Notes under the pieces: generated by a model
What the model was told of the DNA's origin: nothing
Databases searched by the model: none
What the model saw: only the letters and a program-made list of their open reading frames with translations
Shown: positions 43,598 to 63,000 of the stretch, piece after piece
Layout of the letters: each line of letters starts with the position of its first letter
Numbering within the stretch: the first letter of the stretch is position 1
Made by a program: the position numbers and the translations under genes
Assembly: GCA_964016885.1 (NCBI GenBank)
Contig: OZ024742.1
Span: forward strand, 318,122,001-318,186,000
DNA from: Eledone cirrhosa
Lineage: Eukaryota
Direction: 5' to 3'
Length of the DNA stretch: 64,000 bases

Positions 43598-45054
43598 TGT
43601 ATATATATATATATATATATATATATATATATATATATATATATATATATATATATATATATAGTTGTGTTTAGTGATAGCTATGGTGTATGCCAAGATT
43701 AGCACTCGATATTCATCAGAATAGAGTGTAGATATTATAAAGAAAACAAAAAATCAGTGATGCATCTGGACTTAATTTATTTCGTGTTACAAATGTTTCG
43801 CCGGCATGTAGCTCGAGTCATGGTCCTTCTATGGATCTGGCTGATTCTACTTCTGCAGATTCTTTCAGACACAGGTGTTACGTCCGGGGCAAATTTTATC
43901 ACTGGGGTGTTATCATCACAAAACACCCTAAAAAAACTCTATTTCCACTCTTGTTATGCCATTGGCTATTTTTACTCCACGTCATCACAAGTTCTGGTCA
44001 GTATCTGCTGCCACACGGTTCATCAACTATTTTCCGTCCGACACATTTCAATGGTGTCTGCTCACACTTCAGGGTAAGCAACCACACATACTAAAATACA
44101 CACATACAAACACACACACATGCAGACACATACCCATCTATACCTACACCCGCGTACGCCTACATGCGCAGACACCCCCACATTCATACATACATTGAAG
44201 TATATATACTCACACACCGTCTCTCCCTCACCTACACGGACCCATTCACACCCACTTGTTGATACATACCGCCACGAGCCTTTTGACGGTTGTTTACTTC
44301 GCGCTCTGTATCAATTGGGATAAGCATATCCTACTCAAACATACACTTATATACATACATACATACGCGCGCACATATACATACGCCCAACCTTCTATAC
44401 ATTTAAATATAAATATATATCCCTATATATATATATACACACTCATACACACACATATATACATACACACATACAGCCACATACTTACATATATACACAC
44501 GTCTATACACACATATATATATACACATATATACATACATACACACACATATATATATATAAAAATGTATACTCACACATGTCCACACATACATACGAAT
44601 ACACATACGTACATAAACATTACCTACACAGTACATACACACACATACATATATATATATATATTTATATACATATATATACATATATACACACAAAAGA
44701 AAAGAGACAACTTAACATACGTATGCACATCCACACATATACACATACCCACGCATATGCCGATATACCTACATCTACACATGCATACGCATACGTGTTG
44801 CCACATGTATACACCTGCACGCATGCATATCTGCCTACACACACATGTGCTACCACATATACATATATAAAAACACCCGTAAGTGAACAGTTAAAAATAC
44901 ATTATGCCATAAAAACATAAAATGACGGTAAATTACCGTAACATAAAAAAATATACAATGTAATATAATATACAATATGATATACATTTATATATATATA
45001 TATATATGTGTGTGTATATATATATATATATATATATATATATATATATATTAT

Positions 45055-45663
45055 GTCAGGTCACCAGTTGGTGCTACTGGTAACATGTATCCCAGTACAA
45101 CCTGTCTCATGGTCGGGTCGTTGGCGACTAAACTGGCAACCCCACCAAGGTTTCTTGGTGAGGAGGGTGACTTTGGACATCCTGCAGGACTAAAAACAAA
45201 ACCTGTCAAAGGGCAAAGGAGCTCGTAAGAGTCAATGACCATCCAAAATCACCGGGAGAGATGACCCCTTAGCCTTTGTCAAGGCAGAATTCTAGGAGAA
45301 GGAAAACTCTGATATAACACCTGCAACCCTGATGATATCCAATGATGTTGACTTGTTCTTCTTTTTGGTAAATATCATCTTGGTTAAGAGAGTGGGACTG
45401 GCTTTGTGCAGTGCCTTTGCTCACTATAAAAGCTTCACGGCACAGGCATTGCTTTATATCTGGAGATCTCTCTGCACTTGTCGTCACATGGTAACATGGG
45501 CCCAGCACTATGTGTCAATAATTGTCACAAGTGTAGTGTCTGTACCAGAGTTTTCAAGTCGCTGGCTGGACTAAAAAGTCACACTCGTTCAGCGCATCGG
45601 TAGGGGTTCTCCTACATGGATATAAAGTAGTGGCCGTACTCGAAAACGAGTTGGCAGCCACCA
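45055..45663 (+). mobile_element. RTE-derived non-autonomous element (5'-like part fused to 3' end)
   Basis: 3' part encodes the C2H2 finger CSVCTRVFKSLAGLKSHTRSAHR* (45532-45603); flanked by (TA)n. Confidence 0.55.
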
Positions 45664-59207: not shown

Positions 59208-60028
59208 ATATATATAATAAAATAATTATGGTTTTATAAATATAGTTTCCATTTATTAATATATTGAATATTTACTCCACTCCTCTGTTGAGTGCTTTAT
59301 ATCAGTTATAAAATGTTTAAGCTTCTTGAATCCCAACAAATTAAATATAACCTCTGCATATATATATATATATACATGTAAGTATATATATATATATATA
59401 TATATATATAGATGAGATTCTACAGGACTAGAATGTGGTTACCTCCGATTCAACCCGGAATAACGTATATATATATATATATATATATATATATATATAT
59501 ATATATATATACGTTGTACCAGTATATTCAGCTGTAGAAATGAGTTGCGACGTCACTGGTGTCAAGCTGTATCGGCCATTGCCTTTCCCTTGAACATCAT
59601 AGGTGGCGTGGAGAGGGGAGGCTGGTATGCATGGGTGACTGCTGGTCTTCCATAAACAACCTTGCCTGGACTTGTTTGTGCCTCGGTGGGAAACTTTCTA
59701 GGCGCAAATCCCATGGTCATTCGTGACCGAAGGGGGTCTCCTCTAACAGGTAAAAGGATGAGTAACACGAATAAGTGATATAATAGGGTTTTATTCCAAG
59801 CATTAACATATGTTTCATCACTTAATATGCAATTAATTATGTCTTGAAATCGATATCGTCAATAGTTGATTGGTTGTTACGAAATTTGAATGTAAATACA
59901 CAACGCAATGCAGCTACGAGGCGAATTATCAAAATACTGATCATGGATCCAGTCTCACAACCGTTATATATATATAACCGATATATATATATATAACCGG
60001 TATATATATATATATATATATATATATA

Positions 60029-63000
60029 GCGGCGATGAATTAGTTTTGCGAGGTTTTTTATATGAAATCGTGTGTCGAAACAGATATTGTTATATTTGGG
60101 GAGGGTCATATTTGCGTAATATTGCCAGAATTAATAACAGAACACACTCACTGTTTGGTTGGTTTTCGCTTCTCGCTGTCTTTTATATATATATATCTGC
60201 GATCTAACTTACTCGGTCCTCAATGTTGCCATTGACTGACCGGCGGTCAAAAATAATACAGATACAATATAGACAAACACATATATATATAGTTTACATA
60301 ATTTACATAAATCTTTCGTTGCACATCTGCAACATCGTCAGTGGTGTTATATTCATTGTTCCTCCTGTTGTGTTGTATGTCTACGCCATTTTTTTTTGTT
60401 CAGTCTGTCTATATATTTATTTATTTATTTGCTTGTTTGTTTATCTTATTTTATTTTGTCTTCTTTGCGCATGCGTTTGCGTGTGTGTATAGTGTTATGT
60501 GTGATGTGTGACTAGTGTGTATAGTGTTGTGTCTGCTGGGTGACTAGTGTGTGTTTATGTGCTTGTGTATGTATTTATTTATCTTATTTTATTTATTTTA
60601 TTTAATTTACTTATTTATTTATACTTCTCTTAGGTCAGTGTTGTTTGTTTGGGTGTTGTTGTTGTTCCACTCATTCTTTCTGTTTAGCTTTGGTCTTCTA
60701 ATTTCTATTTCACTGGCCTCTCTGATTTGCCTATCTACTGGGTCATTCCTATGTTTAGATATTATTCTAATTTCTATGTTGTCTATGTTACCGTCATGTT
60801 GTTGTCTAGCATGTTCGTATAGTACTGACCCGTTTTTTCGTCCTTTTAGTTCCCCCCAGTGTTGGTCTATCCTTTCACCTATGCTACGAGCTGTCTCACC
60901 TATGTATGTTGTTGTCGTGTTTCTGCAAGTACCCTCTGTACATCTTATGCTATAGACTACGTTTCTAGTTTTACAGTTTATCCGGGGGTTCACCTTACAT
61001 ATGATACATTTCCTATTGGTACAGTGGGTTTTCTTAAAAGGGTAGGTTTTGCTGATCAGGGATTTTATGGTGGTTCCTGGCTTTTCTACCACCTTTATTT
61101 TTAAGTGGGTCTTTCTCAGGGCCTTTCTACACTGGTTAGCTAATTTCCCTCCAGGGGTGGCGTCCACAAACATGACACTCTGATATCTCTGGTTGTCGTA
61201 CCATGATGTGGCCTTCCCTATCTTATGTCTAGCCCTATCTAAGCTATTCCATGATTTGCTCCTGTATAGTGGGCAAATTCCTTTCATGTCCAGTTCTATG
61301 AGGGTCTTATACTTTTCCATGGCTCCTTCGTATACTCTGACTCTGTCTCTTTGGTTGTAGCCAGAGAACTGCATGCGGTTGATGAAGTGTTGGATGTGTC
61401 CTTCCATTTCTGTTGGGTCGCACATGCTGGACACATTCTTCATCACTCGTACCAAATCTGCGATCAGAATATTAAACTTAGCACTACTGGACATTGCTGA
61501 GTTTTTGAGTATCAGGTATTTGGAGGCCATGGGTTTAGCATAGTGTGAGTGGAGAATTTGGGCTCTCTCGTCTATAGTGTTAATCCAGAGTTCTGTGTCT
61601 AATACAGGTAGTCTATTGTTAGGGTGTTTGGAAGGGAAGTCTATAGTTACAGTTATACTCTGGTGTATGGAATTAGCTATCTGCTGGATGCTTTCCATCG
61701 TGCTACGTTCTAAATCAAACTTGTTAGTGCTCTCTAGTGGGGGTGTTCTTATAACTATATTGATATCGTCTACATAACGAGAGTACATGATGAGGTCTAT
61801 GGAGCTTTCATTAAGGAGGAGATCTTTAAGTCTCCTTTCCCACCATACCATGAAAAGGTTGGCAACATCACCAGCTATGCTGACGCCGATGGCTGCTCCC
61901 TCATTTTGGGTGTAGATTTTCTCATTGAACTTAAATATGTGGCTCTTTAGGGTAGTTTTGATACTAGCCCCTATTGCATGTGCGACCATTTTTCTTACCT
62001 GATCAGTGTTTTGGGGGGTCCGTATAGCTTTGGTCCACCCAATCCACCTTCCTATGGGAGTCTTTTTAGCCATTGAGGTTATGGTGGGGGGTCTACCTCT
62101 TATAGGTCTACTAGGGCAGAAACATCTAAGGTCATGGCTGTCTAGGTAGTCAGTGTCGTAGGTAAGTCTAAGTAGGAGGCCCAGTTCGTCTGTGTCGACG
62201 TCGCAGAACTCCACCTCACTCTCAATGATCATCTCCACACATCTTTTCACAGCAAAATCAATGTTAATGGATGGGTACAGTGACACCACATCCATGCTGC
62301 CTATTATGCAATTGGATAGGCTCCTGTTTTTGTTGCACTCACTGATTCTGCTGAGGAGGTCCTCTGTACTTTCACATACATCTGGGGACATCTTGATTAT
62401 GGGGCGTATAACCATTGAGAGGAAGTAGGAGATCCTGTAGTTGCTAGCTATATTAGCTCCGCATACGGGTCTTGTTGGTGGTCCTGTTGTCGGGTCGTCG
62501 ACTGTCTTGTGGTCTTTGCGGAGCCCATACAAGGGTGGTATGCCATTGTTAGACGCCTGGAAGTTGTTGGCAGTGCGTCTGCTTGGCTTTAGGATGTCAG
62601 TCCACATCATCATGTGAGCGTTGAGGATTTTTTCTCTCCCATCGTGTGTTAGTTGTGCAACTTCGCTCGTGTTGGTGATGTGGGGTTGCATTGCCTCGAT
62701 GTAGTTCGGCATGCTATCTATTGACATCCTACCAGACTTATCTGTGGGTAGACACACTACCTCACCATCCCTTGTGCGCTGCCTGAGGCTAACCAAGCCT
62801 TCTACAGGTTTTATCCCAAGTTGTTGGGCCTCTGGTCTGCTCTGTCTCATAGTGTACCTGTCTACTACTTGTCTAATCTTATTTCTAGCTATGGTGAACT
62901 GTGCTTCCGTCTCGTCATCTATTTGCTGTGGTATGAAAACTCTTTTATTAAAGGGTAACCTCGTAGGATAGATATTACCCATCTTATATGTTTTGTCAGC

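Follow-up and report, generated by a model that had tools for sequence, protein, structure and literature searches.

What wrote a crowd of non-coding inserts into the (TA)n tracts of one small region of an octopus genome? The question is raised by a window of 64,000 nucleotides of Eledone cirrhosa (assembly GCA_964016885.1, contig OZ024742.1, positions 318,122,001 to 318,186,000), the window being the whole stretch of DNA that was analysed. A preliminary description, made from the letters alone, had seen there a nest of at least seven inserts (43.6-60.4 kb) and had taken them for several non-autonomous, retrozyme-like families mobilised by Penelope-like elements (PLEs) with a GIY-YIG endonuclease, like the two in the window. 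We consider it rather probable that the inserts are the 5'-truncated 3' ends of several PLE families, which a GIY-YIG endonuclease/reverse transcriptase (RT) would have written into (TA)n from two starts on one source RNA.

The seven inserts were found within a few bases of the coordinates given for them and all adjoin (TA)n. They are labelled A (43664-45007 and 46856-48148), C (48237-48682), D (48759-48926), E (49450-49917), B (50306-50422), F (51172-51780) and H (59076-59357); G denotes a 498-bp tandem and K a weak candidate at 59700-59964 (Table 1). Family G and a solo pseudo-long terminal repeat (pLTR) with a hammerhead core at 43080-43599 had escaped the preliminary description. The outline of the first had to be redrawn. 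What had been described as a single insert at 43663-48150 is instead two inverted arms of family A around at least five other inserts, namely a long interspersed element (LINE)-like end, a low-complexity fold-back, a 209-nt insert, a family B arm and a pLTR fragment. Because the inserts had been picked for their flanks, copies found by homology were used for the flank test. The enrichment was borne out, as 11/11 ends of these homologues lie within 15 nt of (TA)n and 0/38 control ends of short interspersed element (SINE) alignments do. Six of the 11 come from outside the nest, a region in which (TA)n is found within 10 nt of 0.65% of positions. Short TA runs inside the elements (e.g. 60184-60196) could turn into targets.

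The shape of the inserts was then compared among families. The inverted end ascribed to most of them is present at the own locus of A, B (50306-50422, with a 17-nt arm), C, D and E, i.e. five of seven, and is absent from H and from F at 51172; a second copy of F (59411-59465) has a fold-back. The constant end ascribed to them stood wherever it was testable (B, F, C and the autonomous PLE of the window). A tail is found on one arm only, with 73 nt in A, 78 in B, 54 in C, about 100 in D, 135 in E, 74 in F and 58 in the autonomous PLE. Family B has two fixed stops, one used by all four tail-less arms and the other by all three tail-bearing arms. The two arms are 97.9% identical in A, 94.8% in C, 100% in E (123/123), 93.9% in D, and 94.7% and 88.3% in B. 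Copies of B are 82-89% alike across loci, and within each B locus local variants are common to both arms. Both arms of C carry an allele (48581, 48284) that is present in about 5-7% of the depth of read set X1, described below. The minority allele of C, the identical arms of E and the locus-specific variants of B therefore indicate one source per fold-back. In the F copy at 59411 the 32 nt of tail end and the 23 nt from farther upstream meet with zero overlap, which requires two priming events and excludes snap-back, the self-copying of one complementary DNA, as a general cause. For family B self-copying is possible, its junction being in a palindrome; the B fold-back junctions at 10130-10140 and 28790-28797 lie in it. 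Arkhipova et al. favour self-priming at palindromes (PMC3846280), which may apply to this family.

From the arms, tails, flanks and hammerhead motifs seen in the sequence we infer the following course. The enzyme would cut both strands inside (TA)n. One cut end would prime at the distal start of the RNA and give the tail-bearing arm, and the other would prime 45-135 nt further in and give the tail-less arm. Both copies would stop early and be joined, leaving a fold-back between TA tracts. A hairpin between the two starts may bind or position the enzyme, and the hammerhead may process the precursor RNA. Repeated hits on the same microsatellite would build the nest. Insertions of endonuclease-containing (EN+) PLEs are described with 5' truncation, an adjacent inverted copy, a one-sided tail of 30-40 nt and a (TA)n bias (Craig et al. 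2021, PMC8557442; Arkhipova et al. 2013, PMC3846280). The inserts are alike in truncation, adjoining inverted copy, one-arm tail and (TA)n target, but have tails of 45-135 nt and no attached open reading frame (ORF) in any of the seven inserts, and at least eight families are packed in 17 kb. With Anolis PAc, a Poseidon element, both strands were cut and extended in vitro, two RT starts bound the tail and the targets were AT-rich (Frangieh et al. 2024, PMC11167929). That element belongs to another clade, its hammerhead is dispensable for insertion, and no cross-family tail hairpin is described in the available text of the study.

Hammerheads were sought with a strict descriptor after Cervera and de la Pena 2014 (PMC4209133), with C3-G8 or U3-A8 permitted, and with a relaxed one in which helix II was optional and helix I had at least 4 bp. 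The strict descriptor was satisfied in 2/12 segments (C at 48530 and H at 59153, both plus strand) against 0.01 segments in 1,000 shuffles, and over the whole window in three places (C, H and 20405 outside the nest) against 0.09 expected. With the relaxed descriptor A, E and H matched among the seven inserts (null 0.13), and the whole window gave nine matches: both A arms, E, H, 20405, 59932 and three without helix II, which are likely chance. The hammerhead of H (59147-59207) has CUGAUGA and a helix I of 6 bp. The motif of E (49710-49851) has CUGAAGA, a very long helix II, GAAA-CGAUCG-UU and a 4-bp helix I; its long helix II folds at z -5.2 with a mismatched closing pair. Both arms of A carry the 8-letter core CUGAAAGA, with one extra core letter. 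F contains CUGAUGA and GAAA with a helix I of 1 bp. Four inserts had been credited with a type I hammerhead-like fold; the credit is due to C and H, E and A are near-misses, and F fails on helix I. B and D, where no recognisable hammerhead was found, fail as well, and so does G. In F and G a hammerhead was ruled out on the helices. G has a half core only, CUGAUGA near the inner start, and a permuted type II reading of it was ruled out by eye, closing helix II being missing. A published Octopus Naiad is annotated 'half core', with no link to family G shown. Candidate K is weak and folds worse than shuffles. The strand of the hammerhead agrees with that defined by the tail in A, C, E and the autonomous PLE.

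In the autonomous pLTR both core halves are present, with a helix II of 4-6 bp in 2/3 copies and a helix I of 2 contiguous bp only. Rfam gave no hammerhead among the 150 of 235 window matches listed, nor in the full lists for four sub-regions, the autonomous pLTR included; its silence even on the pLTR of the autonomous PLE means that it misses such minimal motifs. Rfam microRNA matches in the window are due to hairpins and TA repeats. The minimal hammerheads of metazoan PLEs (PMC4209133) are alike in the short helix I, palindromic helix III, U3-A8 core (a variant described there) and opposite-strand pairs, and such pairs 100-700 bp apart are ascribed there to truncated PLEs. Helix II of E and A is much longer and A has the extra core letter, although the supplementary alignments of that paper may hold long-helix variants; its available text names no cephalopod. 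Outside the nest and outside any TA tract, a textbook minimal hammerhead (CUGAUGA, 4-bp helix II, GAAA-CG-UU, 4-bp helix I) followed by AATAAA is present at 20370-20412 on the minus strand and probably represents a solo end left by a PLE with a target other than TA.

Family C was matched to read data at 80% likeness. Matches were 6,834 contigs in X1, 3,003 restriction-site-associated DNA (RAD) reads in X19, 132 contigs in X4 and 15 contigs in X5, a second organism; the RAD reads are not independent molecules and X1 may be related to the source of the assembly. The family is high-copy, not single-copy. The summed depth in X1, which is not copy number, was 1.0-1.6 million over 48507-48566 and 8,000-97,000 over 48417-48491, which shows that the hammerhead is the most shared part of the family. 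Among the 40 variants listed of 79, none falls on the core and two are in helix II (48540, 48549). The changes that break the core in the left arm are private, 153/160 and 147/157 plus-strand reads differing from them. Loose ends behind 48670 enter (TA)n in 166 reads of X19, 20 of X1 and 1 of X5. Beyond 48421 on the upstream side the sequence goes on in all four runs (by a median of 90 nt in X19 and of 129 nt in X5), and its last letters are similar; the C copy of the window is therefore truncated. Piles of X19 read ends at 48342/48345, 48421 and 48520/48523 lie on AATT and were rejected as RAD cut sites. Opposite-strand joints in the reads, being indistinguishable from arm-to-arm mapping or RAD ligation, were not used for fold-backs elsewhere. 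Taken with the tail geometry and the position and strand of the hammerheads, the reads of family C leave the mobilisation by GIY-YIG PLE machinery into a common (TA)n niche well supported.

The inserts had been called sequence-unrelated, and BLASTN agrees, the best pairwise match being 24 nt (E 0.006), but five of them share a tail motif. It consists of ACTC, a spacer and RTYGAGYDC, is carried on the sense strand by the tails of A, B (three copies), E, F and H, and ends 38-62 nt from the 3' end. These seven are all the matches in 64 kb, against 1.09 in shuffles (maximum 4). Because the motif was derived from these very tails, the comparison with shuffles is too favourable; its strand, its position and its absence elsewhere did not enter the definition. 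It was sought in C, D, G, K and the autonomous PLE and is not there. The consensus fold of six sequences is weak (-1.7 kcal/mol), with two-sided change in 2/8 predicted pairs. By eye the motif matches the 3' end of the coral Hydra-2_Amil, the ends of Hydra-2_Ajap and Hydra-1_Crog are similar, and one Naiad has a weaker look-alike hairpin. A search of published consensi for 11 short insert motifs found none, though line breaks can hide matches. The literature search, with subscription papers and Repbase outside it, found no description of such a motif, nor of octopus hammerhead families beyond Hydra-1_Obim. The predicted hairpin probably serves as a binding or start signal of the copying enzyme.

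Which PLE supplied the enzyme can be considered from the autonomous element of the window. Its frame at 60619-63270 encodes a predicted reverse transcriptase with a C-terminal GIY-YIG nuclease (top homologue an Octopus vulgaris protein, 69%) and carries DKSG at 177, YVDD at 499, CTNRKCIIC at 750 and YIGET at 789. Its non-coding 3' end has 591 nt, with the hammerhead core at 60341. The 3' end is at (TA)n in 3/3 copies of the family, and its inverted pLTR has no tail. A linker of the CX2-5CxxC kind marks Neptune and Nematis PLEs (PMC8557442); the element shows this linker, the C-terminal GIY-YIG and a DKG-type motif, and by linker and motifs it is of predicted Neptune/Nematis type. The Hydra clade is defined by protein features (DKT, RWK, a CxCX5C linker and no CCHH; PMC8557442) and the inserts are non-coding; Hydra-clade PLEs, Hydra-1_Obim included, are like them in (TA)n preference and may be like them in a hammerhead about 100 nt from the 3' end with a helix III of 3-4 bp, and the tail hairpin is comparable, by eye, in the three Hydra ends named above. 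On this sequence likeness the candidate hairpin suggests, for A, B, E, F and H, a Hydra-like mobiliser and not an element of the window's type. The proposal that PLEs like the two in the window mobilised the inserts is doubtful for these five, since their hairpin is missing from the autonomous PLE and looks like those of Hydra-clade ends. Searches of metagenomes with the PLE protein gave no confirmed locus, and the family B motif had no match in metagenome, viral and GTDB collections. Both PLE frames have an asparagine-rich insert in their N-terminal part (63028-63270; 25225-25830).

For most of the nest truncation is a sufficient explanation. B, C, D, E and H are each shorter than the 591-nt end of the local PLE, 190 PLE families make up 6.83% of the O. 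vulgaris genome, and the Octopus Hydra and three Octopus Naiads are listed as (TA)n-preferring. The term non-autonomous is accordingly not sustained for these families, C extending upstream in other copies besides. Several observations weigh against an origin by truncation and PLE targeting. The (TA)n niche is shared beyond PLEs, since a second type of SINE stands next to TA in 2/3 copies; the LINE end at 45052-45662 is also in TA. A tblastn search of 43-60 kb with 119 PLE homologues, all queries of Neptune/Nematis type, reached a best E of 0.6 and traced no insert to an RT frame. A (1.35 kb) and F (at least 610 nt) exceed both the 591-nt local end and the ends of about 200-310 nt, by eye, of three Hydra consensi, and G is a tandem of a non-coding unit. 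The insert tails are longer than the published ones. The tail motif was defined post hoc, and C, D and G lack it. Against shuffles most candidate hammerheads show no gain in folding (z -1.6 to +0.7), which minimal forms would lead one to expect but which lends them no support. At the inner start microhomology averages 2.4 nt against a null of 1.05 (P 0.03) or 1.84 (P 0.20), with three junctions misplaced by automatic scoring. Reads were checked for family C only.

It is possible, though a good deal less probable than truncation, that some inserts (A, F and G first) are true non-autonomous families that retain the hammerhead and tail hairpin alone and rely in trans on the protein of a Hydra-like PLE, a reading compatible with truncation family by family. 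Reading the ORFs by eye revealed no PLE coding remnant in the 1.35 kb of A, both arms of which end at the same inner point, nor in the 610 nt of F; G is a 99.6% tandem of its 498-nt unit, a cis motif is common to five families whose bodies are unrelated, and Chlamys non-autonomous elements and trans-mobilisation by pLTRs have been published. On the other side, the upstream extension of C in all four runs does not fit, later inserts fill the TA tract in which A ends on the inner side and mask its true 5' end, and the coding check covered proteins of Neptune/Nematis type only, besides reading by eye. In a bolder form, which we regard as speculative and somewhat less likely again, octopuses would have seen a radiation of non-autonomous, SINE-like parasites of Hydra-clade PLEs, with unrelated bodies, a hammerhead (with a U3-A8 core or very long helix II in some) and a single conserved hairpin in the tail that would set two RT starts and (TA)n insertion.

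Spread as non-LTR retrozymes through self-cleaved circular RNAs is improbable. Such retrozymes (PMC7229834; bioRxiv 10.64898/2026.07.22.740005) are, like the inserts, short non-coding repeats with type I hammerheads and are thought to use PLE proteins, and those of frogs derive from PLE pLTRs (bioRxiv 10.64898/2026.07.22.740005). They are defined, however, by direct head-to-tail tandems with a canonical hammerhead per unit and by circular RNAs, whereas the inserts are fold-backs or single ends, their hammerheads are single or inverted, and G, the sole tandem, has a half core; the retrozyme-like label fails here. An origin of the fold-backs as artefacts of assembly or amplification at TA hairpins, with motifs by chance, would suit the identical arms of E, a region rich in palindromic (TA)n and the ambiguous opposite-strand joints of C, but it is very unlikely, as the arms of A, B, C and D differ by 2-12% with indels, tail-less arms end at fixed family sites at separate loci, descriptor matches exceed shuffles and the reads restore the left-arm core of C.

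Table 1. Features of the (TA)n nest and of related PLE copies in the window (a dot marks features without assigned strand).
Feature	Positions	Strand	Details
Family B fold-back, outside nest	10048-10289	+	(TA)n at both ends
Second PLE copy, frameshifted	24614-28519	+	Tail-less inverted pLTR 24614-24931; (TA)n at both ends
Family B fold-back, outside nest	28655-28858	-	(TA)n at both ends
Solo pLTR of autonomous PLE family	43080-43599	+	SINE within (43318-43498); minimal hammerhead core at 43133; (TA)n adjoins 3' end
Family A, tail-bearing arm	43664-45007	-	73-nt tail 43664-43737; hammerhead-like motif, core at 43868; no PLE protein remnant
Family A, tail hairpin (predicted)	43702-43727	-
Non-PLE insert between A arms	45052-45662	+	LINE-like 3' end, C2H2 finger reading; (TA)n at end
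Low-complexity insert	45695-46340	.	46-bp inverted ends, each in (TA)n
Family B, tail-less arm	46666-46730	-
pLTR-like 3' fragment	46743-46845	+	Begins at hammerhead 3' half (GAAA-CG-UC), cut inside TA run
Family A, tail-less inverted arm	46856-48148	+	Hammerhead-like motif 48026-48104: CUGAAAGA, helix I 5 bp, long imperfect helix II
Family C, tail-less inverted arm	48237-48420	-	Hammerhead broken by two private substitutions (48307, 48337)
Family C, tail-bearing arm, 5'-truncated	48421-48682	+	Tail 48629-48682
Family C, minimal type I hammerhead	48527-48562	+	U3-A8 core (UUGAAAA), 4-bp helix II, palindromic helix III; predicted cut after 48559
Family D	48759-48926	-	About 100-nt tail and 33-bp fold-back; too short for hammerhead
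Family E, tail-bearing arm	49450-49712	-	135-nt tail, extended tail hairpin 49497-49579
Family E, tail-less arm	49713-49917	+	Hammerhead-like motif 49710-49851
Family B, short copy	50306-50422	+	17-nt inverted arm and tail; tail hairpin 50350-50375
Family F, 3' end	51172-51780	-	Tail hairpin 51213-51233; CUGAUGA and GAAA without helices at 51299
Family G	54269-56162	.	498-bp non-coding unit x 2.4 in tandem (99.6%) and two inverted tail-bearing arms
Family H	59076-59357	+	Hammerhead 59147-59207, tail hairpin 59274-59295, no fold-back
Family F, second copy	59411-59465	-	32-nt tail end and 23-nt inverted piece, non-overlapping
Candidate K	59700-59964	-	U3-A8 core at 59932, 6-bp helix I, palindromic helix III, poor helix II
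Autonomous C-terminal GIY-YIG PLE	60029-63270	-	Open frame 60619-63270, CX4CxxC linker, both ends at (TA)n

Further observations concern the filling of the nest. The LINE-like insert at 45052-45662, which we take to be of RTE type, has a probable 5' untranslated region and is apparently internally deleted; the SINE and B-box labels used here are likewise our assumption. The 209-nt insert (46400-46608), with TA tracts on both sides, shows a B-box-like motif on the plus strand and a decayed CUGAUAA...GAAA on the minus strand, and by eye it looks like the centre of the family B copy at 10120-10180. At 46730 the B arm is joined through a (TA)6 run to the hammerhead half of another family (46730-46845). 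At 48927-51171 there is a degenerate TA array, interrupted repeatedly, in which a large part (49902-50822) matches itself in inverted orientation; the array may include local duplication or assembly noise. The 5' side of family F is formed by 2.4 kb of CA/TA low complexity. A probable DNA transposon remnant with matching ends lies at 57920-58625, with a transposase-like C-terminal reading (58187-58690, minus strand).

Elsewhere the window contains an RT of a non-LTR retrotransposon with zf-RVT (6992-8944, minus strand), a galactosyltransferase exon (10547-11929, plus strand), two identical tRNA genes 5.6 kb apart (29549-29621 and 35161-35233, minus strand) and a 3.5-kb triplet repeat array of (GGT/AGT) type with higher-order periods (35354-38833).

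Published work, on octopus PLEs too, already describes TA targeting, hammerheads at the 3' end and inverted copies, and the nest is largely explained by known PLE biology and ordinary for a TA-rich mollusc genome. The new detail is the predicted tail hairpin in five of the seven inserts, a candidate cis signal for the PLE reverse transcriptase that bears on the open question of how the tails and inverted copies of PLEs come about. Such ends are likely hidden among the 'unknown' repeats and 'MITEs' (miniature inverted-repeat transposable elements) of octopus annotations, and the motif offers a way to classify these repeats and to find non-autonomous partners of PLEs.

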